Under the pieces are notes generated by a model that was not told the origin of the DNA, ran no database searches, and worked only from the letters and a program-made list of their open reading frames with translations. DNA of 52,985 bases from positions 1-52,985 of IMG/VR virus record IMGVR_UViG_3300036790_000826; one strand, written 5' to 3'. The position numbers and the translations under genes were made by a program. Position 1 is the stretch's first letter. Each line of letters starts with the position of its first letter. This DNA comes from a virus. Taxonomy: Duplodnaviria > Caudoviricetes. Below are positions 1 through 45,188 of this stretch, piece after piece.

Positions 1-98
1 CAGGCGCCGCCCACGGCTGTCCCGCTTCGCCCCCGTCTCCACAAGCTCTGCTGCGATCGTTTCCATTCCCGCAGCTTAGCGGAAATTCGATCAGCCGA

Positions 99-2681
99 CT
101 ACGAGGCGACTGACCGGACGCTTACGAGCTTGCCGACGCGCAGGGCTTCGACGGCAGCGACGCCGCCGTGGTTGGCCACGTCCTGCTCGTTGAAAACGAC
201 CTCGCGGCGGTGGACGAGGCCAGCGACTTCATCTGAGTCGCCGTTGCCCGTATAGCCGCCGACCTTGAATAGAGCCATGCCTTGCACGGCTGCCATCGCG
301 CCGCCCACGGCGACAGGGGCCATGGCGGCAGCGCCGCCCCACGAGGCGATGGTGGCGAGGGTCGCAGGCGCAGCCCAAATGGCAGACATACCCATTGCGG
401 TCGCTGCATTGGCGGCTAGCGCGGCAGCACGCAGGGAATTGCCCAAGGCGAATTCGATCACCTTGCGGGCAACCCACTGGACCGAAGCCTGAACGATGGC
501 CTGCACAACCTGCGTCGTGATCGTCGAAGCGACCGAGGCGAGGGCCTGATGCCACGTTTTGGTTTTCATTATCAACGCGGTGATGTTCGAGGACACCGAG
601 TTGAGGGCTGAATTCATCACGCCGGAAATCTCCGAGCCGATGGACTTGAAGCTGTTCGTGAGCTTCACGAGACCGGAGGTCATGTCGCCAAAGAACGAAC
701 CCGGCGCGGTCTGGGACATTTCCTTGGGCAGGGTGACCTGCTGGCGCTCCTGGAGCCGCTTTAGCTCGTCCTGCGCCTGAGCCTTGGTTGCGGACCCATC
801 AGGCTCCGTCTCGACGCGCTTCTTGGCGATGGCGATGTCCTCGGCGATTTGCTGCTCCTCGCGCTTATATTCGAGGTAGAGCAGTTCCTTCTTTTGCCGG
901 TCGGTCAGATACTCGTCCTCTTTGATCGAATCGACGGCGGCTTGGTCGGCACGCTGCTGCTCCTGAGAGGCGGCAGAGCGCTTCGCGGCAAGTTCCTTCT
1001 CGGCCTGTTTCTCCTTTTTGTCGGCGGCCTCCTGCGCCTTTTTGTTCTCCGCTTCCTCGGCCTTAGCCTCTGCATCCTGCGTCGCAAAAATCTCGTGCTC
1101 CACCTGCGCGATCTTGCCCGCCATTTCGAGACGGAAGGTGTAGGCGGCCTGCTGCGCCTCGCTCTGCTTGGACGGGTCGCTGGCCTCGTTCGACCCAAGG
1201 TAGCGCTCGGGCCGCGAGTCAGGGCCGTTGAGCTGCGCCGTCAGCGAAGCCTTCTTCGCGAGGAGCATGTTGATGTATTCGGACTTGTCGGCTTCCTTGA
1301 AAGCCGCCTCAACGCGGGCCTCCTCCTGCGCCTGAATCTCGGGGCCTTTCTTGACCAACGCATCGCGGGCGGCTGCTGCCTCGCGTGTAAACGCTGCGGC
1401 GCGTGCCTCCATTTGGGCCTCAAGGTCCTTCTGCTTGTTCAGCTCGATCTGCTTTTGGCCCTCGGATTGGAGAAGGGAAAGCCGCTGACGGGTCAGGTCG
1501 ATCAACTCGACGATATTGCCCGTTGACGTATTGTCATCATCACCAATGGCACTGCCCGAACTGGCGAGCTGCCTGATGTTCTTCCATCCTTGATCGGTTG
1601 CCGAATCTATATCGGACTGACTCCGCACGTTATCGGCCTGAGCGCTGAATTGATCGAATTGCTTGCGACCAGCAACAGCCTCCTGCTGCGGCCCTGTCAG
1701 CGGCTGTCTTCCGTCTATAACGTCCGCAAGATCAGTGAGCTGGCCGATGCTCGCTTGCGCACCCAAGGAAAGGAATCTGACGGTCTGTTTAAACGCATCG
1801 CTGCTCGTCAGCGCTATGAGGGACTTTAGCAGTTCCTTGTAGGAAACAGCGAGGTCTGCTGTCGCGTCAGAAGCCGACTGCGCCGTCGTAGCGTTCAGAC
1901 GCTCTTGCAGGATCGTGATGTTCTCCGCGCTGGCCGTCACAGCCTCGGTGAAAGCGTGGAGCTTCTGATTCAGAAACTCGTAGAGCTGGCCTGCCTCGCT
2001 CGCGGCCTTGAGGTCGGCGTCGGTGATCCCGAGGCTGCGCCCAGCGACCGTGCGGTTGGCGACGCCGTTCAGGATGTCGGCAATGTCGCGGGTCGCCCTG
2101 AAACCTTGGATGCCGAGCGTCGTCATCGCCCGGTTGAGCGTGACAGACAGCTCGATCTGCTTGTTGAGGTCGGTGATCCCGCCCTTGAACATAGCACCGA
2201 CCGTGGCGGTGTACTGCTCGGCCAGGGCGGGGAAGCTCAGGCCGAACTGAGCCGACTTCGCCTTGAGCTTGTCGATGACATCGCCCGATGCCTCAAGGGC
2301 CTGCTGGAAGGTGTGGTAGCGCTCAGGGTCGAATTCTTGGAGGGCTGCCGCGATGCCTGTCTTTGCGTTCTCCATTTCCGCCGTGAACTGGATGCCCTCA
2401 GAGAGGACACCCTTAATCGCGCCAGATATTGCTCGGACAGCGGCGACAACACTCATCGCAGCAGTCGCGCCTGCCGTTAGCCCTGCGCCCATTCCGAAAC
2501 TGCCAAAGAATTGCTCGCGGAACGTGTCGCCGAAGCCAGCGGCCTCCTTAGCGGCAGCATTGATGCCGCCCATGGAGAACTTGGCTGCGTTCTGGAGGTC
2601 GAGGAACGCTTCCTGAGCTTTCTTTATGCCCTCCAGATTTGCACTAACCTTGAGGAGAATGTCTGCTTGTCCGTCGGCCAT
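99..2681 (-). CDS. Tape measure-like protein (860 aa)
   Basis: Long Ala/Gln/Glu-rich helical protein. C-terminal SAIWAAPATLATIASWGGAAA...GGYTG...AGLVH..E.V block is TMP-typical and aligns by eye with the prophage TMP at 42141-45188. Confidence 0.8.
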   Translation of the reverse strand: MADGQADILLKVSANLEGIKKAQEAFLDLQNAAKFSMGGINAAAKEAAGFGDTFREQFFGSFGMGAGLTAGATAAMSVVAAVRAISGAIKGVLSEGIQFTAEMENAKTGIAAALQEFDPERYHTFQQALEASGDVIDKLKAKSAQFGLSFPALAEQYTATVGAMFKGGITDLNKQIELSVTLNRAMTTLGIQGFRATRDIADILNGVANRTVAGRSLGITDADLKAASEAGQLYEFLNQKLHAFTEAVTASAENITILQERLNATTAQSASDATADLAVSYKELLKSLIALTSSDAFKQTVRFLSLGAQASIGQLTDLADVIDGRQPLTGPQQEAVAGRKQFDQFSAQADNVRSQSDIDSATDQGWKNIRQLASSGSAIGDDDNTSTGNIVELIDLTRQRLSLLQSEGQKQIELNKQKDLEAQMEARAAAFTREAAAARDALVKKGPEIQAQEEARVEAAFKEADKSEYINMLLAKKASLTAQLNGPDSRPERYLGSNEASDPSKQSEAQQAAYTFRLEMAGKIAQVEHEIFATQDAEAKAEEAENKKAQEAADKKEKQAEKELAAKRSAASQEQQRADQAAVDSIKEDEYLTDRQKKELLYLEYKREEQQIAEDIAIAKKRVETEPDGSATKAQAQDELKRLQERQQVTLPKEMSQTAPGSFFGDMTSGLVKLTNSFKSIGSEISGVMNSALNSVSSNITALIMKTKTWHQALASVASTITTQVVQAIVQASVQWVARKVIEFALGNSLRAAALAANAATAMGMSAIWAAPATLATIASWGGAAAMAPVAVGGAMAAVQGMALFKVGGYTGNGDSDEVAGLVHRREVVFNEQDVANHGGVAAVEALRVGKLVSVRSVAS

Positions 2682-2700
2682 GGCGGTGAGTGGTTGAGGG

Positions 2701-3021
2701 TTACTCGGAGATGTTTTCGACTGCCTGCGCTGCGAAAGCTGCGCCCGTAGGCGTGGCTATCCATTGCTGAAACACGCGCATGGCTTCGTCGTTGGTCAGC
2801 TTGTCGGCCCGCTTGAAGGCAAATTTAGGATGCCTCTCCCGAATTGAGCGCACGTCCCCTTTGTCGGCTTCGGTCGGGATACTGCCATCGAACGCAGCAC
2901 TTTCCCAAACCAGCCTCCCGGCTTCGAGTTGGTGCTTGGTCATCTTCCAGCCCAGCTTGAAGGTTTGGACGAACCGTCCGTTGTTGGCCTTCGACCCGGA
3001 ATTCCTTGTTTGGGTTTTCAT
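2701..3021 (-). CDS. Hypothetical protein (106 aa, start MKTQTR)
   Basis: ATG at 3021 overlaps the upstream stop (ATGA); the ORF ends 20 nt before the TMP-like start. Confidence 0.6.
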   Translation of the reverse strand: MKTQTRNSGSKANNGRFVQTFKLGWKMTKHQLEAGRLVWESAAFDGSIPTEADKGDVRSIRERHPKFAFKRADKLTNDEAMRVFQQWIATPTGAAFAAQAVENISE

Positions 3022-3632
3022 ACCTTGGGTTCTCCACTTGGCGGGCATGTCGTTCCAGACGCAGCAACCTCGCGGCAGAATTCGGCCCACCATTCCCTAA
3101 GTCTTATTTCGATCTGGAATGCCTTCAGCCCCTTCAGTCGCCGAGCAAGGTTGCTAAATCGTGGCCCTTTAAATCTGGGTTTCCCTTTGGATGTACGTCC
3201 ATGCGCCTCGATCCATTCCTTCCATTGGGCGACATTCCAAAATCCATCGGACCGGGGTATTGGTGCCCCTAAAATGCGCCAACGCTGCACGGTCTTGCGC
3301 GTGACCCCGAGTATCAGCGCCAGCTCTACTTGATTTCGAGCCCACCCATCCTCAGCTAAACGATACACTCTCTTCGGTCTCCCAACCTTTGGTGGTTGGC
3401 CCGTCTGTTGAGTTCGCGGCTGTGCCGTCTCAAGAATGTACCTCTGTGACGGTGTAAGTTCTCGGCCTTTAGAGCTGTCCTGAATCGATTTGGCTAAAAT
3501 CTGACGCCTCGCAGTGTCGACAGGACTGCCCCTCGTCCGCACGCGGATCTCGGATTCCGGGTCGGTATTCTTGTCTGGTGACCAAATCGGTGCGCCTGTC
3601 CCCCCCGGAGCTGCTTGATATTCGTCAGCCAT
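3018..3632 (-). CDS. HTH protein resembling the lambda Nu1/terminase small subunit DNA-binding domain
   Basis: Segment NQVELALILGVTRKTVQRWRILGAP...WNVAQWKEW resembles the Nu1-type winged HTH; lies directly after the rep gene. Confidence 0.55.
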   Translation of the reverse strand: MADEYQAAPGGTGAPIWSPDKNTDPESEIRVRTRGSPVDTARRQILAKSIQDSSKGRELTPSQRYILETAQPRTQQTGQPPKVGRPKRVYRLAEDGWARNQVELALILGVTRKTVQRWRILGAPIPRSDGFWNVAQWKEWIEAHGRTSKGKPRFKGPRFSNLARRLKGLKAFQIEIRLREWWAEFCREVAASGTTCPPSGEPKV

Positions 3633-3638
3633 GGTGAA

Positions 3639-4388
3639 TTAAACCCGCCTGTAGGGGTCTGCTGGCTGCGAAGGTTTCTGCGGCAGATCGGTGCCCTCGG
3701 GCTCGCGCAATCCCTGCCACCCCTTGAAGATCGTGAATTCGATGGCACGGATAGCCCGTGCTAGACCGATGCCGACGCACCATTTCAAACCCTGCGACTC
3801 AGAGGTGGGCTTGAGCGGCTTTTTGATTTCGATCCGGTGCTGACGCCAGGACTCCCAGGCTTTCTCGAACTCGGGTGTCCGCAGCTCCAAAGGAATTTCA
3901 GCACCCACACTGGCTGCGCCGGTAGGCGCATAGTTCGCTTTTTCTGCTTGTAGGATGCTTGAAGCATCCTTCGAGGATGCTTCGGGATGCTTCCTAGTCT
4001 TGTCTATGTCTAGTCTTGTCTCCGTCTTTGTCTCTCGGTTCAGAGACCACCTGGCTTCGGCGGCCTGCTTCGCCCGGTTCCGATAGAGCGCCAGCTTTGC
4101 CCCGTAGCGCTCGTTCCAACCCACGGCTGTTTGGCCGTCCTCGCTGATGAAGCCACAATCTTTCAGTGCCTTGGCGAGAAGTTGAGCGTCCCCGTCAAAT
4201 TCGAGCACATCCTTAAGATCCTCCGCTGAGAGGTCTGACACGTCATCCGACTCGCGCTCCATGCAGTAGGACCATAGGCGTGGCGGAACCCAAAATGCAT
4301 CGGTCCCGATGACCCGCTTCAGCCGCAAGGTCTTCGGGTGCCGGTAAAAGGAGGATTCGTGTTGAATCCATTTAGCCACGGCTACCAC
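3639..4388 (-). CDS. Phage-type replication initiator
   Basis: N-terminal WIQHESSFYRHPKTLRL...RLW motif, low-complexity linker carrying iterons, and C-terminal FEKAWESWRQHR...KGWQGL domain typical of lambdoid O/DnaT-like initiators. True start may be GTG at 4379. Confidence 0.7.
   Translation of the reverse strand: MVAVAKWIQHESSFYRHPKTLRLKRVIGTDAFWVPPRLWSYCMERESDDVSDLSAEDLKDVLEFDGDAQLLAKALKDCGFISEDGQTAVGWNERYGAKLALYRNRAKQAAEARWSLNRETKTETRLDIDKTRKHPEASSKDASSILQAEKANYAPTGAASVGAEIPLELRTPEFEKAWESWRQHRIEIKKPLKPTSESQGLKWCVGIGLARAIRAIEFTIFKGWQGLREPEGTDLPQKPSQPADPYRRV
3953..4036. repeat. Putative replication-origin iterons inside the rep gene
   Basis: GGATGCTT at 3953, 3975 and 3985 plus inverted AAGCATCC at 3962, followed by two TAGTCTTGTCT copies in a purine-skewed tract. 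Confidence 0.6.
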
Positions 4389-4518
4389 TCCCCTTTCTGC
4401 GCATTGCGTGGGTACGAGCCCGCATCATCGCAAAGCCGCTGGCCGGATTCTTGTAGAGCAAACCCCACTTCGCCAGGGTGTGGCGTCGCATGCGGTTTAG
4501 CCGAAGAGCGCTTTTCAC
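4372..4518 (-). CDS. Small basic hypothetical protein (48 aa), below the ORF-track cut-off
   Basis: GTG start overlaps the upstream stop (GTGA); its TAA overlaps the rep start region. Confidence 0.3.
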   Translation of the reverse strand: MKSALRLNRMRRHTLAKWGLLYKNPASGFAMMRARTHAMRRKGSGSRG

Positions 4519-4757
4519 TTTGCCTCCGCTTCGACAGCCGCAGGGCCGTTTAAACGCTCAATGAGCGCGATCGCCTGAGCAACGGGGAGAAGAACCCGGC
4601 CAGCTCGCTGGCGTCCGGGAAGTCGAGGTCTAACAAGCCGAATAAGGCCCTTCGATTCAGCCAGCCGCCACCAGCTTTGCGACATGTTGCATACGGGATC
4701 ACCCCCGCTTTTGGGTAGCTGAATGAATTCGGGATGATTCGCTTCGGTCGATTTCAT
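4515..4757 (-). CDS. Excisionase/AlpA-like small DNA-binding protein
   Basis: 80 aa with PEFIQLP...MSQSWWRL...GLIRLV...GRVL pattern; first gene of the rep operon, as in PICI-like elements. Confidence 0.55.
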   Translation of the reverse strand: MKSTEANHPEFIQLPKSGGDPVCNMSQSWWRLAESKGLIRLVRPRLPGRQRAGRVLLPVAQAIALIERLNGPAAVEAEAK

Positions 4758-5331
4758 AGGTTCAAGGAAGTGGCATTGAGTTGGTGGAGCTGTACACCAT
4801 GGCTCTAATGTCGCTTTGGCGTCGTTTTGGGGCGCGTGCCTGATGGCGTTTTCGTGGTCGCCAAGAGAGCTGCAAATCGCGCCTCGTGCGTCCTATGGGA
4901 ATGGCCAACTTTGCCATTCCTTTGGCTCTTGCGGCCTTTCGCGGGCGAAATTGGGTCCCCAATGAGGGTCTGGGCTTCAAAAGACCAAGGAATTGGTCAG
5001 AAGTCCCAAGCCAATGCCCCTAGAGGCCCAACCCAGCGGAATGTATCAATGGCAACCCATAGAGCGAAAAGCGCGCCTTACTCTCGGCCAGCGACCTGCC
5101 CCGGCAGCCAAGCGCAACATGGGACTCCCATTTTTTCATCGCATGCAGATGACAAGGGCCCTCGTGGCGGAACCAGCCCGCCGGGGGTGGGCCAAAGAGA
5201 TTCCTTAGGGGGGCAGGCCCTAGAATTAATGCAGGGCTACGTTCGTCGGTGGAACGGCGCGAACACCCGGCCCCGTGACGAGACTTGAGTCGCTGCAGCT
5301 TCGCGCTCTAGTACCCGCCCAAAGAAACCCG

Positions 5332-5763
5332 ATGGGCTACATGCTCGACACTTCAGTCTTCAACCGGATTCTGCAAGGCCGCCTTGCGTTGGAGGCCGTG
5401 CCTTATGATGGAGGGATCTTTGTCACCCAGATCCAAAGCGACGAGCTGACCAAAACCGGCGCCAAGGACGAGCAGCGAATGAAGGACCTTTTGGCTGTGC
5501 TAGCGACGCTCGGTCCAATGACGATTCCTACCGAGACGGGGGTGGTGGGCTACGTCAAAATCGGTGAATTCAAGATTTCCAGTGGCGTGAAGTTTTCTGA
5601 AATCAAAGCCGCGATGGAGCGAATTCAGCCGAAGAAAGATCACACAAACGATGCGCTCATTGCGGAGGCAGCCTTGTTGAACGGCCATACCCTGGTAAGC
5701 TCCGACAAGGCACTTTGTGCGGCCTTCGAGGAAATCGGCGGCAAAGTATATCGAATCGCTTGA
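5332..5763 (+). CDS. PIN-domain (VapC-like) ribonuclease
   Basis: YMLDTS at the N-terminus, DEL, NDALIA and LVSSDK acidic PIN motifs. ATG at 5332 is preferred over GTG at 5275. Confidence 0.8.
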   Translation: MGYMLDTSVFNRILQGRLALEAVPYDGGIFVTQIQSDELTKTGAKDEQRMKDLLAVLATLGPMTIPTETGVVGYVKIGEFKISSGVKFSEIKAAMERIQPKKDHTNDALIAEAALLNGHTLVSSDKALCAAFEEIGGKVYRIA

Positions 5764-5836
5764 TCTGCTACTTTTACCCCGGACGTTTCGGGGCCTAATC
5801 GCGCCAGCGAAACCCGTAAAGGTAGCCTCGCCAGCG

Positions 5837-6076
5837 CTAACTGGGTTTTCCTACCACGCGCACAAATTCGCCGTTATCGACCCTCTGAAACGTGCCCTCA
5901 TCAACATAATTCAAATCGTAGCCGTCACTAGTAACTGCTTCGCTCAAAGCCCCAAGGGTCTCTTGGTGGCCATGGCGCATATCGCTTGTATCGATAATCT
6001 CCCTGTAAACTAGAATTAGGCACTCAGCCCCCGAATCGTAACGACCAAGCAATCTCTGGGTTAGACGTTTGCTCAT
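5837..6076 (-). CDS. Hypothetical protein (79 aa)
   Basis: ATG start, globular-looking composition, co-oriented just downstream of the HNH gene. Confidence 0.45.
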   Translation of the reverse strand: MSKRLTQRLLGRYDSGAECLILVYREIIDTSDMRHGHQETLGALSEAVTSDGYDLNYVDEGTFQRVDNGEFVRVVGKPS

Positions 6077-6122
6077 AGACTTGGCTCATTAGCCAAATCG
6101 GTTGGCTAACAATAGTCCAATT

Positions 6123-6767
6123 CTACTTCATTCCGCTCAATGCCGCCTCAGCGAGATCCAGAGCATGAAGTGCCTGCCTTGCTGTCGTTGCGTGTGGCGT
6201 GCCGACCTCATCCGCAACAATCCGCTCCCATTGCGGACGACACCTTGCGGCGTAGGCTCTGAACTCCGCCTCTAATATTGCTTTTTCGCGGAGCCGCTTT
6301 AGCAATGGGCGATTGAGTCTAAGGATTCTGATTTGATATTCTGCAGGCGGCTTAAGCGCATTTACGGTCCCATCGCCGTCGACTTCAAAAAAGTTCAATC
6401 GATTTTCGATGAAAGGCTCGATCCAGCCTTTTTCACCATCGAAAGGCAAAGAGGGATCCTCTGTTGGCCAATGGTCACTCTTGAATCTATTACAGATCCC
6501 ACAGGAATGAACCAGGTTTTTAGGATCGTCGCGCAGATGCTCAAATCGCCTCTCGTTATTCGGACCAAAGGGCTTGCGCCACGGGCGAAAATGATCGGTC
6601 TCCATGCCATGTATGCCGCCGAATGAATCTTGGTGGCTACCGCAGTACCCGCAGTACTCGCGGCAGTCTTCGGAAATAGCCACCCGGTATCTCGCATAGC
6701 CATAATAAGCCCCATCGGGCCTAGTCTCATACGGGTCTCGTCGGGTGAGAGGTCCGAAATAGGCCAT
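6123..6767 (-). CDS. HNH endonuclease
   Basis: CGYC...ETDHFRP...NLVHSCGICNRFK zinc-binding HNH signature. Confidence 0.88.
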   Translation of the reverse strand: MAYFGPLTRRDPYETRPDGAYYGYARYRVAISEDCREYCGYCGSHQDSFGGIHGMETDHFRPWRKPFGPNNERRFEHLRDDPKNLVHSCGICNRFKSDHWPTEDPSLPFDGEKGWIEPFIENRLNFFEVDGDGTVNALKPPAEYQIRILRLNRPLLKRLREKAILEAEFRAYAARCRPQWERIVADEVGTPHATTARQALHALDLAEAALSGMK

Positions 6768-7403
6768 CTATAGAGGTAGATTGCCCGCCCTAATCAGGCC
6801 TTTAACAGTTTCCACAGCTCTTGCTAGATTCTGCTCCTTTGCTCTCTCTTCGGCGAGAACAGCCGCCGTAGCCTCCCCCTCAAGTCGGTCCATTTCGGTT
6901 TGCTCCTCAGGTGTAAGGGCTTCGCGCAGGCTCTTGACCAACAAATCATGAAATCGGCTTTCTCGGTCGTTGCGGACGTCGTTAAACACGTCCAGATGCC
7001 GAAGCATTCTCGCTTTGACTGTTTTCGCCTCCTCGCTATTCGCGTCCTCAATATCCTCCTTTCCGATGATGTTTTCGACCAGGTGCTCGCATCCTGCGAA
7101 GTCTTGGCGCTCTCTCGAATGACCTGTCAGAATATATATGGGCATCTTCCCGTCTATGCCGCGTAAGTGGCTCGCGAGATCTGTCCCATTGTATCCAATA
7201 CCACCGCCTTTCATTCGTTGATCTAGAATGAAAGCAGCCGTGTCTGGCTTAGCTAGAAGCTCGTTGTAATCTGCCATAGCATGCAATGGCTCTTGGGCTA
7301 TTACTTGAATTTCCGGGTTGTCCAATAGGCTAATAAGGCCCCGAACATTGGCACGCCGAGCTGCCGCGTCCTCGTCGACAAAATAGATCCTGTTTCGCTT
7401 CAT
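6768..7403 (-). CDS. Response-regulator receiver-domain protein with helical C-terminus
   Basis: IYFVDED, FILDQRM (phospho-acceptor Asp), ILTGH and conserved Lys in IIGKED; ATGA-coupled to the kinase. Confidence 0.8.
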   Translation of the reverse strand: MKRNRIYFVDEDAAARRANVRGLISLLDNPEIQVIAQEPLHAMADYNELLAKPDTAAFILDQRMKGGGIGYNGTDLASHLRGIDGKMPIYILTGHSRERQDFAGCEHLVENIIGKEDIEDANSEEAKTVKARMLRHLDVFNDVRNDRESRFHDLLVKSLREALTPEEQTEMDRLEGEATAAVLAEERAKEQNLARAVETVKGLIRAGNLPL

Positions 7404-9751
7404 GTCTGGTTCTGTTTCGCGGCTTTGGGAACCTTGATTTCGAATCCTGCTCCGCCCAAGTCCCCGCGATCTTTTGCGAAGATACTACCTCGCGCATGAT
7501 CCTCAACGAATGATTTCACAATGAAGAGACCCATTCCGGTACCGAATAGCTCACCACGTCTATTGCGCTTTGTACTAAAAGCGGGTAGAAAGATCATATC
7601 TTCGGTCCCTGCCTCTAGACCGATTCCACTGTCGTCAAAATTGAGACGCCACTCGTTACCCTCATCGACAATTCCCGCACGTATGCGGCGCTTTTCGGGA
7701 ACAATATCCTCCAATGCCCATGCGGCATTTGTAATCAGATTCACCACGATGCTTTCCCAATCCATTTCGTATCCAAAGATTTCGCATGCATTCTGCGGCA
7801 TCCCTGTCAGATCAACCTTTGTGTGACGCTGAATTCGCAACACCTCGTCAAATGCTTCGAATACGTCGCTGACCGTTTTCTTAAGGTCGAACTCCCGTTG
7901 CTGTCTCTTGGTTCTATTCAGATTTCCCAGTGTGAAGCTCGCGAATTTACGAACCTTCTGAGCCTCATCTGACGTATCCTGCAGCGTCTGGGTGATTTCG
8001 GCTTCAACCTGAGGGAGAACCATGAAAGATCCCTTCTTAAAGCTCTCCAAGAGCCATTTAGCATTCTTAACAACCGTTCCCGTCCAGTCCAAAGTCTCGT
8101 GTCCGAACGATGCTGCTAATATTCCTAATGACGCGAGATTCGCCATTGTGTTCTTCTGGTCTTCCGCGTCGCGATATAGCTTGGTCGATTCGGCTAAATC
8201 TAGGCGGGCCGTCTCCAACTGCTTTTGAATGTCCTCAATGACCTCCTTAAATTGCCAGTAGGACTCAGGCAGAATTGTCTCGATGGGCGGCGGCTCAGTG
8301 AATTTGGGCAGTTGGTTGGCAATGTCGCTTAGCTTCTTAAGCGCTGAATCAGCACCATCTAAGGTACTGCGAACCTTATCTTCAGCGTTTTCGAGAGGGG
8401 CCTGTTGCTGCTTAAGCGATATCTCGTAAGTCTGATGATGAACTTCGAAAAATTGAATAACTCGCCGCGCAAAGACGGCCAGGTGATCGAACGCTTTGCC
8501 CTGGAGTAGCCCTTCGCGGTTCGTTTGATCGTTCAACCCTGAATTCCGCGCATGGGTGATGAAGACGGCGCCCGCTACCTGATTGTATCCGACCCTCCAG
8601 TTGCCGGGCTTTGCGTCTTGAGCGACACCTTCCGGATTGACCATTCGCCGATAAGCTAACTTCAGCCAATCGCCACTTCCGTCCGGCTCACCGTAAGGCT
8701 TTACCCTAAAGCCATCGCGATAAATTCGGACACCTTGATTGTACTTCAGGAAATTCGCGATTTCCGCAGCCCGAAGCGTCTTCGACGCCAGCTCCACATC
8801 GCGTCGAACAAAGAAATAGAATTCCATTTTCAGCGGGCCACAATGGGGCCTGACGCCCTGTTTCTTAACGAAATCACTCCACTGAGTAGGCTTGAGTGAG
8901 TACCCGGTGCCATGTCGTGGGGACGTCATACTGATTTCCACCTGATCCAAATCGTCCAACGTCGCTACCACATTCCACGTAGCCCCCTCCAAGAGGGGCT
9001 CCGGAATCGGTACTGGTCCGTCCAAGCGCACGAAAGCGCCCCCGGTTTCCATTCGTATCGAGAAATCATTTGGTGCTTGGAATGGCGAAATAAGCAAAGC
9101 CAGCTCATTTCGTAATGCACCAATCGATTCCTCGTCCCATAGATCTTTGAGGCCACGCAAGACAAGGCGTGTGCCCTTCGGATAGTCGATCCAATCTCCA
9201 GAAATCGGATCAAGCTTTAGATTTGGTATGCTAAATAAGTCGTGCTCGACCTTTTCCAGACGGGCATCGCCCGCAACGTAGCGTCCCCAGTCTATAACTA
9301 GACGAACCCCTTCCCTGGCGTTCTCCTGAATTGAATCAATCTCAGAGACCGAACAGAGCCGGTCCAATCCTAAGCGGCCTAGTCCCTTTTCTCCGGTAAC
9401 AACCCGTTCCTTCCTAGTCTTTCTGCGTTCGGCTTTGTTAGCGGTACCGATGACCATCCAGAATTCCTTTAAGCTCTCGATTGTCATACCGTCGCCAGTG
9501 TCCTCGATGACAATTATAGCTTCTGGCTTCCCTAGATTTGCGAAACGTATGCGGACCTCGGTTGCATCGGCGTCGTAGGCATTTTTCACCAATTCCACGA
9601 TTGCAGTAATTGAACTTGAAATGCTCTCACGTCCCAACTGAAGGGCAACGCGAGCACTAACTGAAAACGAAGCCGTACCTAGTTTTGTCGGACTCTGCCG
9701 CACCAATTCCGACGCTGGATCACTCGTTCCCGGATCATTCATTTCTGCCAA
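7400..9751 (-). CDS. N-terminal GHKL (HSP90/MORC-like) ATPase fused to a C-terminal histidine kinase
   Basis: ELVKNAYDA, DTGDGM and GEKGLGR (GHKL), then H-box FGHET, N-box NLITNA, DDSGIG, FLPAFSTK and GTGMGL. No TM segment. Start may be ATG 9742 (ATGA with the MTase stop). Confidence 0.88.
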   Translation of the reverse strand: MAEMNDPGTSDPASELVRQSPTKLGTASFSVSARVALQLGRESISSSITAIVELVKNAYDADATEVRIRFANLGKPEAIIVIEDTGDGMTIESLKEFWMVIGTANKAERRKTRKERVVTGEKGLGRLGLDRLCSVSEIDSIQENAREGVRLVIDWGRYVAGDARLEKVEHDLFSIPNLKLDPISGDWIDYPKGTRLVLRGLKDLWDEESIGALRNELALLISPFQAPNDFSIRMETGGAFVRLDGPVPIPEPLLEGATWNVVATLDDLDQVEISMTSPRHGTGYSLKPTQWSDFVKKQGVRPHCGPLKMEFYFFVRRDVELASKTLRAAEIANFLKYNQGVRIYRDGFRVKPYGEPDGSGDWLKLAYRRMVNPEGVAQDAKPGNWRVGYNQVAGAVFITHARNSGLNDQTNREGLLQGKAFDHLAVFARRVIQFFEVHHQTYEISLKQQQAPLENAEDKVRSTLDGADSALKKLSDIANQLPKFTEPPPIETILPESYWQFKEVIEDIQKQLETARLDLAESTKLYRDAEDQKNTMANLASLGILAASFGHETLDWTGTVVKNAKWLLESFKKGSFMVLPQVEAEITQTLQDTSDEAQKVRKFASFTLGNLNRTKRQQREFDLKKTVSDVFEAFDEVLRIQRHTKVDLTGMPQNACEIFGYEMDWESIVVNLITNAAWALEDIVPEKRRIRAGIVDEGNEWRLNFDDSGIGLEAGTEDMIFLPAFSTKRNRRGELFGTGMGLFIVKSFVEDHARGSIFAKDRGDLGGAGFEIKVPKAAKQNQT

Positions 9752-11115
9752 ATTCGAATCGAGGCAATCGACTCAATGGTCAAATGGCGGCAACGAATGC
9801 GCCTGTTTAGGTGTCGATTGGTCTCTCTAGTCTTGAGAACGCGAAGCAGTTTTCTGCACGTCGCCAGTTTTCGATCTTTTGGCTGACAGACTATCAAGTG
9901 ATTCTCAACTGCGACTTCATCTGCACCCGTAATGATCGTAGCGGCAGCGCGGTAGGCGTGTTCGGGACGCGAAGTGCGACGGATGGCGACAAATGGAGTT
10001 TGGTGGATGCCGCCTGAAAATCTGACGCTTTCTGGAAACGACTTCATTTCCTTCCACGGCGGAACGCATCGCGGGTGAATGTAAGGATAGCGCGGGCCGT
10101 TTTCCTCATTTCTGAAAGGCACGACTCGGCCAACATTGACGGCAAACAAGCTGCCAACTGTGGCTTTTGAATTTCGATACTCCGGCCACCTCTTTAAGTT
10201 GGGTTCCGATCTTTCCCTCTTACGGAGATGCACAAGGAATACGTCTATGTCCGCGCTTTCGTCGAAAATGCCGAAGGGCTTTACCAACATTATTTGAGCT
10301 CTCTCGCCCACATGTTTTCTCCACTTTCTGTAATTGGAGCCCGAACGTAAAACCTCCGGAAGAATTGCTAGAATTTCTCCACCAGGGGTCATTCGGTCCA
10401 ATGAGTTGTCGAGGAATATTGCAGCCATTGAGACTTTGCCACGGCCCCACGGACATTTCTTCGGCGCCCTCCCCAATCCGAACGGTGGATTAAGCAAAAT
10501 GTGTGTTGGGTCCGTTGCACCGACTTTGGGTGCGAGGCCGTCCGCCTTAAGAATGTTCGGAAAGTAATCCCGCCAATTTTTGGGAATAGGACCAAAATCC
10601 CGTTTCCTTTGTCGTGCCAACAAGACGAGACGGTTCTTCACCGCATCAATAAATTCAGAGTAAACATCGCAGCCGCTGAGCAGCCCGCCCCACAGCTTCA
10701 GGGTTCCTTCGACGGTGCCGCCAAGTGGGAGCTTTTGCGCTGCCGCTAACAAAAGGTCCCCAGCCCCACATGCCGGGTCGTGGATCATTAACCCCTTACC
10801 ACGAGGTCGACTCAGGTGTCCCAAGAGTTCTGCGGCCAAATGAGAGCCAGTAAAAAAAGTCCCCATTTTTCGCCGCTTAGAAAGCCCGACAACTTTGCGG
10901 AGCTCTTCCGCCGCCTGACCATTTAACGAAGCATCCACTGCTGTATGCCAGGCTCGGTCGTTTCGTGGCTCAATCGCTAGCTTTTCAAGCGTGTCGACGT
11001 ACCGGCGGTAGCAAGCTACCGGAGAATTACCTTGGCGCGTCTTGGGTAGCATGGGCTTCTGAAAGCTAACACTAACTTCCGATGCAGGAAGGCGAAATTT
11101 TCGCCACAGGGTCAC
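9739..11115 (-). CDS. N6-adenine DNA methyltransferase (gamma-type motif order) with C-terminal target-recognition-like region
   Basis: GTFFT, DPACGAG (motif I), NPPF (motif IV) and AILP. Confidence 0.88.
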   Translation of the reverse strand: MTLWRKFRLPASEVSVSFQKPMLPKTRQGNSPVACYRRYVDTLEKLAIEPRNDRAWHTAVDASLNGQAAEELRKVVGLSKRRKMGTFFTGSHLAAELLGHLSRPRGKGLMIHDPACGAGDLLLAAAQKLPLGGTVEGTLKLWGGLLSGCDVYSEFIDAVKNRLVLLARQRKRDFGPIPKNWRDYFPNILKADGLAPKVGATDPTHILLNPPFGLGRAPKKCPWGRGKVSMAAIFLDNSLDRMTPGGEILAILPEVLRSGSNYRKWRKHVGERAQIMLVKPFGIFDESADIDVFLVHLRKRERSEPNLKRWPEYRNSKATVGSLFAVNVGRVVPFRNEENGPRYPYIHPRCVPPWKEMKSFPESVRFSGGIHQTPFVAIRRTSRPEHAYRAAATIITGADEVAVENHLIVCQPKDRKLATCRKLLRVLKTRETNRHLNRRIRCRHLTIESIASIRIWQK

Positions 11116-11372
11116 ATCCGTGATTCATCAATTTGCCTGCGGATTAGCTGAACAAAGTAAAGTGTTTCATCTTCCGTTAGGGTGCCTGCCCCTTTCTCAA
11201 GATCTTCAATGAAGATGCCAATTCCAACCGATGACCGCAGTCCCTTCTCGGTCCAACCGATTTCTGAAACAGGTGCCTTGCGTTGCCGGGTGATCGTGGA
11301 CGCTCGGTCAACCCAGCCTGCGGCCATCAGCTTTCGGACCAGGCTATAACGGGCAGATGGATTTGTCGGCAT
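11112..11372 (-). CDS. Small hypothetical, possibly winged-helix protein
   Basis: KLMAAGWV...WTEKG resembles a wHTH wing; stop overlaps the MTase GTG start. Confidence 0.45.
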   Translation of the reverse strand: MPTNPSARYSLVRKLMAAGWVDRASTITRQRKAPVSEIGWTEKGLRSSVGIGIFIEDLEKGAGTLTEDETLYFVQLIRRQIDESRM

Positions 11373-11376
11373 CCGT

Positions 11377-12183
11377 CTAAAAAAGACTCTTACTCGGGCG
11401 ACTGCTGGACGGTCCTCGCTTGCGGGCAAATTTTTTGGCCAGCCCTTTGGCCAGTCCTGCCACTCTATCTCCGCGCTCCTCGATTATTTCGACAAGGGCG
11501 TGTTCGAAAACTTCGAATGCATCGAGCAGGTCATCCCGAGAAAGCTTCGAATTATGGCTTCCTGCATTCCCAAGCCATTTCAAAGCCATTAAATGGTCTC
11601 CAACGAGCGGAGAATTAAGTTTGAATTTGGCCAACCGGGCGTGGAGCGACAGTTCTACGAGCCTATTGTGTTGATTCCTTCCCCATCGCTTTACCTTTGA
11701 ATGATCCATTAGCGCTTCGAGGGCCATTCGAAGGCGTCCGGCAGATGCCGGACGATCTGATGCGTAGAGAGCAAATGCAGCTGCTAGGCTCTCCTTTACG
11801 CTTTCAGGGCAAGATTCAGGCACTTTGAAGAGGGGCGGCATTGGATGCCAAAAGAGCGGTTCGAAATAGTCGTCCCAATCCCAACCCTCCGGACTATTCA
11901 CCTGCTGGACGCCGCCCTTTCCTGCAATTGCGACTTTCTGCTTACACTTTTGGTTTACGCAGGTCGCCCAGGCGGTGAATCGGTAATCAGTCCATTCAGG
12001 ATCGAATTCATCATCTGCATGGCCTATTTTCGACTGAGCCGTTTCGTAGATGATTAGCGAATTCGGAACCAGTTTTAGCGTTCCCGTCGCGCAAATGGGA
12101 CATGGCCACGCAGCACACCCGTACTTGTAAAGATTCGTCGTCCAAAGCTCGCGCTTCATTTTGCCGTACTCGACGTCATCCAC
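11377..12183 (-). CDS. DUF4145/HEPN-like protein with N-terminal zinc-ribbon motifs
   Basis: CPIC and CVNQKC, then ASAGRLRMALEAL...LHARL...LGNAGSH pattern of DUF4145. Confidence 0.7.
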   Translation of the reverse strand: MDDVEYGKMKRELWTTNLYKYGCAAWPCPICATGTLKLVPNSLIIYETAQSKIGHADDEFDPEWTDYRFTAWATCVNQKCKQKVAIAGKGGVQQVNSPEGWDWDDYFEPLFWHPMPPLFKVPESCPESVKESLAAAFALYASDRPASAGRLRMALEALMDHSKVKRWGRNQHNRLVELSLHARLAKFKLNSPLVGDHLMALKWLGNAGSHNSKLSRDDLLDAFEVFEHALVEIIEERGDRVAGLAKGLAKKFARKRGPSSSRPSKSLF

Positions 12184-12321
12184 AAATGGCCGCAGAATCT
12201 AGCGTTTAAACGCTATGCTTAGCGCTTCGTGGGGATGGATGAAGGACCGGAAGCGACCCAATGGAGGTGAGGAAATGCCTCTGATCTTCGATTGTGAGCC
12301 TCCTTTTGCGCTTCTTTGCTG

Positions 12322-12360
12322 CTTGTTGAGACTGTTGACAGTCTTGTTGCCACTATTGAC
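12322..12360. repeat. Tandem imperfect 18-bp direct repeat; candidate integrase arm-type sites
   Basis: CTTGTTGAGACTGTTGAC (12322-12339) vs CTTGTTGCCACTATTGAC (12343-12360): 15/18 identical, 21-bp period. Confidence 0.5.
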
Positions 12361-12388
12361 CTCGTAGTCTCCATCAAATCTATAAACT

Positions 12389-12394
12389 ATTGAT
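12389..12394. repeat. Left copy of the junction duplication (ATTGAT; TTGA if the ends are TG...CA)
   Basis: Identical ATTGAT at 51825-51830. Confidence 0.75.
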
Positions 12395-12419
12395 GAGGTT
12401 TCCCATGGGGTTTAAGAAT
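12394..12419 (+). repeat. Left-end transposase-binding site L1
   Basis: TGAGGTTTCCCATGGGGTTTAAGAAT aligns without gaps to the reverse complement of 51800-51825 (TGTAAATTCCCGTTCGCTTTAGGAAT). Confidence 0.8.
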
Positions 12420-12526
12420 CAGTGGAAATAGGGCTCATCAGCTCGAATGAGCACGAAGCCCAACGACTTATAAAATCACCGCCGCGCAGGACGTCCGATG
12501 AGAATGAATCGTCCAAAATCGGCCAG

Positions 12527-12546
12527 ATTCCCAAACGTTTAGGAAT
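12527..12546 (+). repeat. Left-end transposase-binding site L2
   Basis: ATTCCCAAACGTTTAGGAAT, same consensus, about 107 bp inside L1 (spaced left sites as in Mu). Confidence 0.7.
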
Positions 12547-12585
12547 GGCACTGACCTACGAGTGGATTGGAAAACAGGTGTCATT

Positions 12586-13164
12586 TTAGAAGAGCTGCGG
12601 CTGGTCTGCAGAACCCTTTTTCTCCGCCTGCAGGCGCTTTAAACGGGCCTGTTTCTCTCGAAGGGTCTCAGCCTTCGCCTGGGCCACTTCCCCCGTCCTC
12701 TGGGCCATCAGCTCGGGCAGCGTCGGTCCCAGGGCTTTGCCGATCAGGGCCATGGCCTGGCTAACATGGGATCCGGCCCTGAGCGCCTGGTCCCGGATCT
12801 CCTCGGAATTGACCCCCACGTAGCGGTCGACGACGGCCTGGAAATACGGCCAGAAGTCGCGGACCTTATCGGCGCGTTGCTGGGCGCCGAGCGTCGAGAT
12901 GGCCATAATGATATGCGTGGCCAGGGCCTCCCCGTCCAGAAACCAGCCGCGGCGCCAAAGCGCCAGGACCATGCGCTCAAGATAGATCCGGCATTGCTCT
13001 ACGCGGCGGTCCTTCGTGTCGCCTGCCCAGGCCCAATCGAGGCGCTCCGACAGCTGCTTCCGGACCCAGCGGTCGAACCTGATCAGCCGCTCCTCCGGCC
13101 TCTGGCTGCGATCCAGCCAGCTCTCTCGCTTCCAATCGTCCAGACGCCTGCCGAGGAGGTTCAT
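12586..13164 (-). CDS. Hypothetical phage protein (start MNLLGR)
   Basis: ATGA-coupled to the upstream gene; last gene of the early operon; ends in a QPQLF clamp-binding-like motif. Confidence 0.7.
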   Translation of the reverse strand: MNLLGRRLDDWKRESWLDRSQRPEERLIRFDRWVRKQLSERLDWAWAGDTKDRRVEQCRIYLERMVLALWRRGWFLDGEALATHIIMAISTLGAQQRADKVRDFWPYFQAVVDRYVGVNSEEIRDQALRAGSHVSQAMALIGKALGPTLPELMAQRTGEVAQAKAETLREKQARLKRLQAEKKGSADQPQLF

Positions 13165-13535
13165 AGCGAAAGGGTCGGCTGGTCGGTCGGCTGGGGTGCC
13201 AGCCGGGTGTAACGGTGATACCGACGGCGGAGGGCCAGGCCCTGCTGCAGATACTTCTTTCCGGCGCTTTCCCACCGGCTGGCGCAGGCGTCGACCTCGG
13301 CAATCTCGCACGAACTGCTGAGTAGCTTGTAGCCTGGGGATCCGGGCGACCGCATGATGCGCCCGTCGCTGGCCTCGGCGATCGCAGCCAGGCGCCGAAT
13401 ATGGAGGCGGTTCTCCTGGGCGATGAACTCCCGCTTCACCCAGCCGCGGCCGACAAGGAAACGGCAAATCTTGTCGATCTCCTCTTCAGTGACCGGGGCC
13501 CCAGCCATTTCGAGAAACTCGACTTGCTCGTTCAT
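13161..13535 (-). CDS. Hypothetical winged-helix-like protein
   Basis: WVKREFIA...IRRLAAIAE...I..SPGSPGYKL pattern; operon spacing. Confidence 0.6.
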   Translation of the reverse strand: MNEQVEFLEMAGAPVTEEEIDKICRFLVGRGWVKREFIAQENRLHIRRLAAIAEASDGRIMRSPGSPGYKLLSSSCEIAEVDACASRWESAGKKYLQQGLALRRRYHRYTRLAPQPTDQPTLSL

Positions 13536-13537
13536 GG

Positions 13538-13765
13538 TCAGATCGGCTCGGTGATGTAGACCCGGCGGTCGGAGCGAGTCGGGCGCGCCTGCGTTGTGGC
13601 CGTAAATAAGACAAACTCACCTTCCGGGTGGAGACGCTGCAGCCTGAGCAGCTCCGTCTCGGCTTCATCCTGGTAGCAATGGACGAACGACGGCCTCCGG
13701 AGCGCAGGGACCTTCTGACCGTTGAAGTGGTAGACGTTCTGGGAAATATCGACGATCAGGAACAT
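13538..13765 (-). CDS. Hypothetical phage protein
   Basis: TGATG coupling with the upstream gene; AETELLRLQRLHPEGEFVLF motif. Confidence 0.65.
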   Translation of the reverse strand: MFLIVDISQNVYHFNGQKVPALRRPSFVHCYQDEAETELLRLQRLHPEGEFVLFTATTQARPTRSDRRVYITEPI

Positions 13766-14262
13766 CAGAACGGATTCGGGCTCGCCGCCCGGTCTTTGAA
13801 TTTGCCGAGCATCGTGGCGCGGCGGATTTGAGCCAGCCTGGCAAACAAGATCCCCCGGAGCTGGGTAAGCTGCGCCTCGTCGAGCTCCTGGTAGGTCATC
13901 ACCCGGAACACCCGCTTTGCGAGGCCGTTCAGGTAGGCATTCTCGTTGCCCGGCCGGTCGACGATTCCAGTGACGACCTCTCGGACGTTCGCGATCAGGG
14001 CTTGCTTGCGCATAGCCGGCTGCTCCTCGGCCCGGAGCTGGGCCTCCAGGTTGCCTCCATCGTGGACCGCCCGGAAGGTTGCGAGGATCTTGTCCAGGTC
14101 AGGGTTTGTGAAGTCCTTGCTCGACTTCGAATGTCCCAGGGCGCGCTCGTGCAGAGCGTGGCGCATGTCGTCGGTCTGGGACGCGCTCTTACCATGGGCG
14201 CGATACCAGTCGCGGGTCAGAGCCCACTCACGCCAGTAAAGGCCGGTCTGGGCGGCATTCAT
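13765..14262 (-). CDS. Hypothetical protein, possibly GemA/gp16-like
   Basis: HSKSSKDFTNPDLDKIL and LDEAQLTQL patterns and position in a Mu-like early region. Confidence 0.5.
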   Translation of the reverse strand: MNAAQTGLYWREWALTRDWYRAHGKSASQTDDMRHALHERALGHSKSSKDFTNPDLDKILATFRAVHDGGNLEAQLRAEEQPAMRKQALIANVREVVTGIVDRPGNENAYLNGLAKRVFRVMTYQELDEAQLTQLRGILFARLAQIRRATMLGKFKDRAASPNPF

Positions 14263-41990: not shown

Positions 41991-42157
41991 CCCACAGCCC
42001 CAAGGACATCCAACGGTACATCTTCGAGCGAGACCGCTACCATGCACGGCGCCAGCTGGAGCTCATGGAAAGCTGCCTCCTCGGGATGGTCGGCGGAGAC
42101 GACTACAACGCGGCCGCGACAAAGCTAATCGAGATCATCGATGCCGAGCCTGGTTGA
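41786..42157 (+). CDS. gpGT-like -1 frameshift extension
   Basis: The -1 frame is open from heptamer A AAT TTT (41786-41792) to 42157. Confidence 0.5.
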   Translation, partial: KFSLGPRHRDARSGDGPEMWDVDPGDSDIIRTFDELCAYARRCVDRWEGDAWRACASGFCAGDQSKVLTHSPKDIQRYIFERDRYHARRQLELMESCLLGMVGGDDYNAAATKLIEIIDAEPG

Positions 42158-45100: not shown

Positions 45101-45188
45101 CAAGGCTGTCTTCATGCGCGCCATCGCGCCGGACGTTGAGGCGATCGCGCACACCGTCTCCATGAAGAACATTCGGCAAAACGCCTGA
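42141..45188 (+). CDS. Tail tape measure protein (1015 aa)
   Basis: Long helical Ala-rich protein with LSRRTG.S...L..L.QAF motif; between the chaperone and tail-tip genes. Confidence 0.9.
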   Translation: MPSLVELIISAVGAEEAGAAVQGISAKVKELASSLSGGGLKSTTDFSEKLEDVSGVMRDMVSPALSDTTKQLLGLAAASLSVGAVYNSVKDQISQGSDFVQLSRRTGESVRDLVILRQAFTNAGLGAEYVGTAANLLDRVLSGTTASGRRTSEVFEELHLSIDKMRTLTFTQQLQELGSAFARLPDQAARSGAAMTLFGRYAGGQMLQLLADTDAFRRAEAQAGSYADRMARDAGVFNDVALRFNAIKVNIQEMAAAAAEQLVPALDSVAKVAGGINLAGLGSFAGAAAPGILGTVALTIATDQADMKMVQLAERFGQNVEGSLLGGVMGAASKVTGLLATALPFGLAAVIGAEIVKGILMADWQNTMDKIDAAGSGADTLTKKARDIRTDDDRQAVLAMAQKELASQVQAQADATKVPMFSGPGVVPGMDPRATAGEGNSLLADSYGATISQLKTLINELASPKWAKMTEEQNQATDALAKFRTGIDAAATSLPQLREKNDQLQEKDMSPTDRVADLTAQRTQLYYQRAAPPQKGASADEIATVDQQTDNKILDLTHQIQEAEKQVTEEKKKQAELDAHRQIYALQTNMERAKAAGDLEGAQALKEQIDAIRNSVELQGEDLTLAKQRAAAEHQVFEEQQAQIAQRKAAEAARQALEVQRTALENELEAIRSRLALLDSDTSKTEAQKWADRKAAIAEEIKDVEATIQAEQLLAQAAAAKGDQVAANQYSAEAAKNGEKLSGLQHENVQLGPDPNNWVKQTQKSMNDLLKSLGTTSQQIAQSITSTIGNAFNSIRENIVRAITVTGDWKRAISQIGLSIEQSLVGAFVNMAVQWAEKLVIMKVEWLAMRLGMAAADKGVAASSTAALVPLALATSAIWAAPAALATIATFGGAAAAAPMEIAASMAASQGLALASSGGFFPGDPTKARGIFHGDEFVLSAPAVRNLGGGAAVTALHQAALQGPAQAAAAKAMTGGGRTPNIHTYIDKAVFMRAIAPDVEAIAHTVSMKNIRQNA

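Follow-up and report, generated by a model that had tools for sequence, protein, structure and literature searches.

A short operon at the left end of a provirus closes with a gene for a tail tape measure protein (TMP) and has no other tail gene beside it, which raises the question of whether it belongs to a satellite carrying its own TMP or is a fragment of something larger. The window, that is, the whole stretch of 52,985 nucleotides analysed here, is an entire IMG/VR provirus record (IMGVR_UViG_3300036790_000826), and its left edge lies 16 b from the end of the contig. We conclude that positions 126-4757 are probably the remaining core of a small integrative element that resembles phage satellites and belongs to a family in Verrucomicrobiota, whose intact members span 9.4-10.5 kb between tRNA-derived direct repeats, beginning with a tyrosine integrase and finishing with the TMP gene and between one and three small ORFs. 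The copy in the window is defective: an insertion sequence (IS) took the end of its TMP and everything past it.

Gene content of the cassette

The cassette ORFs all lie on the minus strand, in the order xis-like ORF, rep, Nu1/terminase-small-subunit (terS)-like HTH protein, orphan ORF and TMP; contig depth over them equals that of the flank, and a defence island adjoins them. ORF calls and PHROG and Pfam matches bear out the layout given in an earlier note as far as the rep with iteron-like repeats, the HTH protein, the small ORF and the 860-aa TMP are concerned. The operon's first ORF (80 aa, 4515-4757) was called xis/AlpA-like by eye only; it had no Pfam or PHROG match at E ≤ 0.01 and no homologue in any fetched locus. 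The replication initiator (249 aa, 3639-4388) matches phrog_9474 (1.5e-7), phrog_3926 (7.6e-7) and the O-like phrog_678 (1.9e-4), and is 43% identical to the rep of two compact elements described below, L002/L003 and L027. Six of the seven tandem-repeat rows in positions 1-5300 fall at 3945-4027 inside rep, where iteron-like short repeats (an 11-bp unit × 3.9 and a 16-bp unit × 2.1) form a candidate origin; the rep gene of another compact element, L024, likewise holds 15-bp arrays.

The HTH protein (204 aa, 3018-3632) has a predicted Nu1/terS-like DNA-binding domain at residues ~90-150. It matches terS phrog_57 over the HTH part only (1.9e-7) and Pfam HTH_29 below cut-off (1.9e-4); its three best PDB matches are all terS HTH domains at non-significant values (E 0.28-0.79), and its Atlas leads are Nu1/terS clusters. 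The orphan ORF (130 aa, 2701-3093; 106 aa from Met25 at 3021, a start that overlaps the stop of the upstream gene) occupies the position expected for a tail assembly chaperone. It had no Pfam, PHROG or PDB match, a search of 5.8 billion proteins returned only itself, and its Atlas model is poor (pLDDT 0.44). None of the compact elements has a homologue of the 204-, 130- or 80-aa protein. No complete capsid module (MCP, protease, portal, connectors) was recognised in the cassette by Pfam or PHROG, and the window holds no integrase, att site or tRNA target belonging to it. The earlier note had proposed looking leftward for an integrase, where the contig soon stops.

The 860-aa ORF (99-2681) encodes a TMP by sequence homology, as judged from phrog_24 (1.7e-10), tblastn and a PDB profile search. 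In tblastn, annotated TMPs in 16 phage records (Xp10-like, Stenotrophomonas and Rhodobacter phages) match its C-terminal 47 aa only. The family profile finds 8iyk_H, "Tape measure protein" (853 aa), at residues 718-813 (E 1.5e-13), and the TMP chain 9occ_M (E 2.7e-6). Chain H of 8iyk is lambda gpH, and its residues 718-813, which we take to lie in the tail tip, align with a module common to the satellite-like and prophage TMPs, whereas the remainder of gpH is unrelated in sequence.

In the cassette TMP this C-terminal module covers residues ~655-852 (126-719, minus strand). The Mu-like prophage in the same window encodes a TMP of 1015 aa (42141-45188, plus strand; phrog_24, 1.2e-6), followed by tail genes at 45192-47282, 47279-47722 and 47904-51209 that recur after TMPs in many prophage loci. 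The kinship first noticed by eye between the C-terminal ~190 aa of the two proteins is real (38% identity over 193 aa, E 2e-13 by BLASTP; cassette residues 667-848 against prophage residues 766-957), and so is the overall shortfall of 155 aa in the cassette protein. Beyond the alignment 58 aa remain in the prophage TMP and 12 aa in that of the cassette. In the tree, the cassette module has a nearer prophage relative than the TMP of the adjoining Mu-like prophage, so adjacency does not mark that prophage as the helper.

Truncation by an IS66-family element

An IS66-family element inserted after codon 852 and cost the TMP its final ~60 aa, which are conserved. Its left end occupies window positions 1-125 on the minus strand, with a terminus that reads GTAAGCG... 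from 125, as is typical of IS66 elements, and a TnpA-like ORF that begins at 66 and runs off the window edge, so that the window's share of the IS is 125 b only, the terminus and 22 TnpA-like codons. The insertion point is 125/126: the ORF comprises native residues 1-852 (126-2681), to which the IS adds eight residues and a stop codon in place of the lost end. Homology to the TMP of L002 (42% identity in the C-terminal part, 37% in the N-terminal part) stops exactly at this junction (...EALRV). Another contig of the same MAG ends in the identical 141 b that close this one, there behind unrelated sequence; unitig depth is 65 for the IS against 27 and 35 for its flanks, and in two further runs contigs span the 125/126 junction. 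Of 200 other genomes of the family, 17 hold relatives of the 141-mer, two of them in multiple copies, and in one locus, L080, such a relative heads a TnpA-like ORF, which the window's 22-residue TnpA-like N-terminus resembles, with TnpB_IS66 (5.8e-33) and DDE_Tnp_IS66 (4.3e-8). Within the MAG itself we found no IS66 transposase, as is common for repeats in bins, nor the lost 3' part of the TMP gene.

Two features that the earlier note read as traits of the element thus have another origin: the missing last ~45 aa reflect the insertion, and the absence of other tail genes from view is produced by the IS together with the contig end. The practical lesson of this window is that an insertion sequence and an assembly end made its striking features.

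The same evidence bears on the suggestion that the shortened TMP functions in anti-phage defence as a dominant-negative decoy, poisoning tail assembly in related phages. The ORF stays open for 860 aa and retains the module common to prophage TMPs, a defence island lies next door, and satellite interference with tail assembly has a precedent in Rta of PLE11 (PMC12987554). The truncation was nevertheless caused by the IS, the C-terminal domain lost here is kept in all 11 aligned homologues, and in intact relatives the TMP is under purifying selection along its whole length (see below), so we regard a decoy as very improbable. The idea has no support from the C-terminal loss, which is not a designed feature.

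Recurrence in compact relatives

The earlier note had named recurrence of the cassette in other genomes as the test of its reading, and such elements do recur. Among loci built on 44 distinct TMP C-terminal sequences, with genes called by a crude ORF caller, six besides the window are compact (L002, which is the same as L003, L008, L011, L024, L027 and L055): no large same-strand tail gene comes after the TMP, and tail-tip genes are absent. Apart from the TMP, no gene in these elements exceeds ~550 aa. Four are flanked by direct repeats with one copy inside a tRNA gene, namely L055 (9.74 kb; perfect 42-nt repeat), L027 (9.44 kb; 17-20 nt), L024 (10.5 kb; 17 nt) and L002 (10.2 kb; 27 nt at 81%). 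Each of the four joins an integrase to its att repeats, and their gene order is integrase, rep, then terS-like gene or MCP or chaperone, then TMP. PF00589 is matched above the Pfam cut-off by the integrases of L008 (7.7e-19) and L011 (1.8e-15) and just below it by that of L002 (8.8e-6), with which the L024 and L027 genes in the integrase position group by BLASTP; the Pfam scan of L027 gave no integrase match. L024 carries terS (6.8e-7), a tail assembly chaperone (phrog_1442, 6.6e-9) and rep (3e-17), and L027 a major head protein (9.5e-26) and a rep homologous to that in the window. An MCP is the only capsid-module gene recognised in L008 and L027. A chaperone lies upstream of the TMP in L024 and L055, where the window has its orphan ORF; downstream of the window TMP, the IS and the contig end cut the comparison short. 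Family searches, in which several genes remained unnamed, found no homologue of large terminase, portal or tail-tip proteins in the window cassette or the four att-delimited relatives. Compact elements are rare: when 400 more genomes from the phylum were sampled, 14 of them had a match and none of their 15 loci was compact, nor was any of 28 IMG/VR loci, 27 of them judgeable.

Could the cassette instead come from the upstream end of a larger element or a decayed prophage, with tail-tip genes beyond the IS and the TMP an ordinary tail gene? The region downstream of the TMP is missing, most members of the TMP family are full prophages, and two loci, L087 and L097, have TMPs with related N-termini (29% over 311 aa and 26% over 207 aa) that are preceded by four small genes and a divergent integrase-bearing block and followed by tail-tip genes. 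In the window, however, the genes immediately before the TMP include rep and a terS-like gene and none for head, connector or tail tube, and the order matches att-delimited L002 and L027, which hold the sole rep homologues and, in L002, the closest TMP (42% identity, full length). On balance we think such a larger element unlikely.

Another explanation is that the compact elements, that of the window included, are integrative elements of a plasmid-like kind, or stumps of prophages that decayed independently, whose TMP-like protein has some other role or none. Many of their genes belong to no known family, and their dependence on a helper is itself inferred. Against this, their capsid protein, terS and tail chaperone have homologues in full prophages, and none of their genes was recognised as a conjugation gene. 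One structural module is common to L024 and L055, which sit at different tRNA sites and have integrases from different clusters; this argues against random decay, as do the narrow size range of the four att-delimited elements and the constraint on the TMP. The TMP has a dN/dS of 0.17 between L024 and L055, five genes near it have values of 0.17-0.39, and the much more diverged terS has 0.49; in intact relatives the TMP is thus under purifying selection from end to end. We consider plasmid-like elements or stumps improbable, more so than a larger element.

Comparison with known satellites

Under the reading we prefer, a satellite-like element, a plausible sequence of events can be outlined. Upon induction of a helper siphovirus, the element would replicate from its own origin and the terS-like protein would redirect packaging toward it; the element would provide its own TMP, with some members adding a chaperone or a capsid protein. 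The C-terminal ~200-aa module, homologous to helper TMPs and lambda gpH, would then engage the tail tips of the helper and produce chimeric tails that differ in length, as in PLE satellites. For this family we infer helper dependence, packaging and TMP incorporation; gene layout, homologies, IS insertion, recurrence, att repeats and purifying selection on the TMP are observed. The earlier note had offered TMP swapping or a decoy; swapping gains from its experimental demonstration in PLEs (PMC12987554), while the decoy lacks support.

The PLEs of Vibrio cholerae, satellites of phage ICP1, are likewise small and integrative, with their own TMP and chaperone and helper-built tails. They carry tmp and tac and make chimeric tails, deletion of tmp costs them 96-99% of transduction, and the TMP of PLE11 is 95 aa shorter than its helper's (PMC12987554). 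The window TMP, 155 aa shorter than that of the prophage, would be ~95 aa shorter with its lost end restored, and the TMP of L055 is 91 aa shorter than that of a co-resident prophage. The likely helpers here are siphovirus-type with lambda-gpH-like TMPs, whereas the PLE helper is a myovirus. Neither a baseplate hub gene nor an Rta-like gene was recognised in our elements, which at 9.4-10.5 kb lie between tRNA-derived repeats in soil Verrucomicrobiota and are likened to PLEs on grounds other than sequence.

EPIPs of Mycolicibacterium are ~11-kb satellites with terS, an HTH protein, a capsid protein and a TMP but without tail genes, and their tails differ in length from the helper's (PMC12822802). 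They have a serine integrase and free helper-inducing particles (PMC12822802), whereas the elements here are seen as integrated DNA only. The relatives' integrases match the tyrosine recombinase family PF00589. Likeness to PICIs and cf-PICIs lies in an integrase at one end, then rep and terS, and a length of roughly 10 kb. In cf-PICIs the capsid module is complete (MCP, protease, portal, connectors), whereas at most an MCP was recognised in the elements here. Some cf-PICIs are reported with putative tmp genes, in the legend to Extended Data Fig. 10 of the PLE report (PMC12987554). TMP-swapping satellites are thus already in print (PLEs, Nature 2026; EPIPs, preprint 2025), and the Verrucomicrobial family would be a new lineage of a known satellite type.

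Implications

Compact-element TMPs have only the C-terminal ~200-aa module in common with prophage TMPs. For L055 the nearest prophage TMP comes from its own MAG: the two proteins, from L055 and the full prophage L048, are 54% identical, though only in the C-terminal 212 aa, and pair in the tree with support of 99/94. We tentatively suggest, as a possibility that we hold with some doubt, that the TMP of these satellites is modular, with an element-specific N-terminal and central part and an exchangeable tip-docking module matched to the resident helper; a module swap would retarget the satellite to new helper tails. With members that add a chaperone or capsid protein, the family may span TMP-only to partly capsid-forming parasites.

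Satellites that rebuild the tail and not the capsid alone were first shown in 2026 in one Vibrio system, in a report that suggests the trait to be broader (PMC12987554). Elements of 9-10 kb that carry a TMP in an unrelated, poorly studied soil phylum support a wider occurrence of tail rebuilding. They also offer natural variants for comparison (TMP alone, TMP with chaperone, TMP with capsid protein), and comparing these could reveal what a satellite gains from a TMP of its own.

Results

The window is one complete IMG/VR provirus record of 52,985 b. The cassette consists of five ORFs in the same orientation on the minus strand, running from 4757 to 99. An 80-aa ORF with no family match comes first, followed by a replication initiator of 249 aa (PHROG matches at 1.5e-7 and 7.6e-7), within which tandem repeats of 11-bp and 16-bp units are grouped at 3945-4027; a 204-aa protein whose HTH region matches the terminase small subunit family (terS; phrog_57, 1.9e-7); a 130-aa orphan ORF, or 106 aa counted from its Met, a codon that overlaps the stop of the upstream gene; and, ending at 99, a tape measure protein (TMP) of 860 aa (phrog_24, 1.7e-10). 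Searches of all fetched ORFs with the 80-, 130- and 204-aa proteins using jackhmmer returned self-matches only, the HTH protein had no significant match in the PDB, and the 106-aa form of the orphan matched only itself in a large protein collection and gave Atlas matches below usable levels. No integrase of the cassette was found in the window. The cassette TMP is 38% identical to the 1015-aa TMP of the neighbouring prophage (42141-45188, plus strand) over 193 C-terminal residues (E 2e-13), the same stretch hits TMPs in 16 records of cultured phages of Xanthomonas, Stenotrophomonas and Rhodobacter, and its family profile aligns with residues 718-813 of 8iyk_H, a tape measure chain of known structure (E 1.5e-13). 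The observation in the earlier note of a compact cassette whose TMP is homologous to that of the adjacent prophage is therefore real.

The end of this TMP is not its own. All 11 homologues in a large protein collection extend some 50-65 aa beyond it, and homology to the closest of these, the TMP of locus L002, breaks off at ...EALRV. The contig is also present in a GTDB MAG labelled Opitutaceae, where it ends 16 b left of the window, 114 b past the TMP stop; its final 141 b are identical to the end of another contig in that MAG, there behind an unrelated intergenic region. In the Logan unitigs for what is probably the source run, window positions 1-125 lie within a unitig of 1,406 b and depth 65, which forks toward the TMP (depth 27) and toward the other site (depth 35), and the junction is spanned by contigs in two more soil runs (window 1-315 and 1-217). 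Among 200 other genomes of the family, 17 contain relatives of the 141-mer, two of them in several copies, and the match often begins at its first base. At locus L080 such a relative stands ahead of an ORF of 119 aa that at its N-terminus resembles the 22 codons in the window; TnpB_IS66 (5.8e-33) and an IS66 transposase come next. We thus conclude that an IS66-family element inserted at 125/126, after TMP codon 852, and that the final eight TMP residues and the stop are IS-derived. The MAG yielded no IS66 transposase, and a search of it for the lost 3′ end of the gene returned nothing beyond the two TMPs already known and one weak hit (E 0.7). One low-depth contig of sequencing run X3 parts from the window at 134 and goes on for 63 letters that are not IS sequence; it may represent an uninterrupted allele but is not counted, as the departure comes 8 nt ahead of the IS boundary and 30 of the letters were visible. 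Run X2 contains a joint, 175>1102, at depth 2.8.

An IMG/VR scan with the cassette TMP as single query found no relative. Pattern scans, which used a 9-sequence alignment since a 12-sequence alignment held no conserved stretch, identified 43 metagenome loci and 20 genome loci (2 of these on the window's own contig) with 44 distinct TMP C-terminal sequences. The majority are ordinary prophages: next after the TMP they have genes homologous to the window's 696-, 147- and 1101-aa tail genes, or else different large genes on the same strand. Six distinct loci are compact, carrying a TMP with no recognised tail-tip genes: L002 (identical to L003 over 8,882 b), L008, L011, L024, L027 and L055. Cassettes of the type described in the earlier note do recur elsewhere. 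Downstream of the TMP they have only one to three small ORFs, each about 60-110 aa long, with no link to the small post-TMP genes of the prophages, and then opposite-strand genes. Members of the family are rare: of 400 additional genomes sampled from the phylum, 14 had a match, and the 15 loci fetched from these all carried tail genes after the TMP, none being compact; so did 27 of 28 IMG/VR loci, the 28th ending at the TMP. L003, a 179-kb compost-metagenome contig, breaks off near the 3′ end of its TMP gene, which is of the L002 type (L002 8882), 56 nt short of the stop codon, and is the second assembly break at this spot after the window's own.

Four of the six compact loci are flanked by direct repeats with one copy within a tRNA gene: L055 (9.74 kb; 42-nt perfect repeat, tRNA-Arg), L027 (9.44 kb; 17-20 nt, tRNA-Ala), L024 (10.5 kb; 17 nt, tRNA-Ala) and L002 (10.2 kb; 27 nt at 81% identity, tRNA-Leu). 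The L055 copies, at 2259-2300 and 11995-12036, correspond to the 5′ half of tRNA-Arg(tct), up to and including its anticodon loop, and not to the usual 3′ end; for a functional tRNA the element would thus have to provide that half itself. Each repeat-bounded element starts with a gene in the integrase position. PF00589 matches were obtained for L008 (7.7e-19), L011 (1.8e-15) and, weakly, L002 (8.8e-6); the corresponding genes of L024 and L027 fall in the same BLASTP cluster as that of L002, and a Pfam scan of L027 gave no integrase match. Directly upstream of the L008 integrase, at 1255-2607, is a HipA-family toxin kinase gene (HipA_C, 1.1e-52). The rep proteins of L002 and L027 are 43% identical to the window's, and BLASTP of the cassette's 204-aa and 130-aa proteins against the equal-sized, equally placed L002 proteins found nothing. 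L024 encodes rep (3e-17), terS (6.8e-7), a Bbp16-like protein and a tail assembly chaperone (6.6e-9), and L027 and L008 encode a major head protein (9.5e-26); large terminase, portal and tail-tip genes were not recognisable in any compact element. An intermediate architecture is seen in L028, a 10.8-kb contig on which a terS homologue precedes a 633-aa gene, a homologue of L024's 242-aa protein, a TMP (841 aa) and, last, five genes of 135-246 aa.

In a 40-row tree of the TMP C-terminal module, the cassette TMP groups with L002/L003 (support 97/97), and L055 with L024 is sister (99/94) to the TMP of L048, a full prophage in L055's own MAG. The L055 and L048 TMPs share 54% identity across the last 212 aa and none elsewhere; similarity between the window's two TMPs is likewise confined to the C-terminus. 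These two lie in different clades, however, so the tree does not single out the neighbouring prophage as helper. The compact label requires at least five changes on the tree, no fewer than in shuffles, and the N-terminal 300 aa of the cassette TMP have relatives also among TMPs of tail-gene loci.

The neighbouring prophage, at 12400-51800, is Mu-like: it has a GemA match (1.7e-7) and a 738-aa gene that by its place would be the transposase; its repressor-like gene and early genes point left and its late genes right. Its ends may be marked by the 12-nt inverted repeat TTTAAGAATCAG, present at 12411 and 51776. Both copies have TTCCCA immediately outside them, and a clean 5-bp target duplication was not seen. 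The right end lies 65 nt from tRNA-Val, which with asd occupies the window's right edge, and no repeat of the tRNA-Val region of at least 10 nt was found in 4700-13800. Between cassette and prophage, the stretch 4800-12400 has a GC content of about 0.50-0.56 vs about 0.64-0.69 for most of the prophage and encodes a mad2-like methyltransferase (1e-12), a 783-aa protein with two HATPase domains, a PtuB-like HNH nuclease (9.4e-16 to a PtuA/PtuB model), a receiver-like protein, a DUF4145 protein and a PIN-like ORF; it probably represents a defence island against phages, of no clear type.

Discussion

The TMP of this cassette is shortened and apparently alone because of the IS insertion and the assembly break that the IS caused. 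The missing C-terminal 45 aa and the absence of tail genes in view, both pointed out in the earlier note, are thus products of these events, and the proposal that the protein serves as a dominant-negative decoy is not supported, since it builds on an accidental truncation. The window's copy, IS-disrupted, without integrase and with its distal end missing, is a defective member or a remnant.

Random prophage decay could be envisioned as the source of the compact loci. L024 and L055, which occupy different tRNA sites and whose integrases belong to different clusters, have a structural module in common. Their pairwise dN/dS is 0.17 in the TMP, 0.17-0.39 in five genes nearby and 0.49 in terS, which has diverged much further. 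A family of elements that is mobile and under selection fits these observations better. Alternatively, the window's cassette may be part of a larger, tail-bearing element such as those at L087 (G475:C4) and L097 (G263:C31), in which a TMP is joined to a run of tail-tip genes, with only four small genes and a divergent block upstream and no head genes within 6-9 kb upstream. These two could be tail-only elements or tailocin-like clusters; their divergent block includes a tyrosine-integrase homologue.

Replacement of helper TMPs by satellites is already an established kind of system. The PLE study reports that PLE11 virions contain the PLE TMP and not that of ICP1, that the PLE TMP is 95 aa shorter and gives tails about 10 nm shorter, that tmp deletion lowers transduction by 96-99%, and that putative tmp genes occur in PLE-like elements and some cf-PICIs (Nature 2026, PMC12987554). 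The mycobacterial EPIP satellites, of 11 kb, carry a TMP, MCP, terS and a serine integrase (preprint PMC12822802). A full-text search for papers naming both "Verrucomicrobiota" and "phage satellite" returned a single one, which appears to deal with gut prophage activity. Regardless of the defective state of the window's own copy, the swapping of a satellite TMP into helper tails, the other mechanism put forward in the earlier note, is the best-supported reading for the family.
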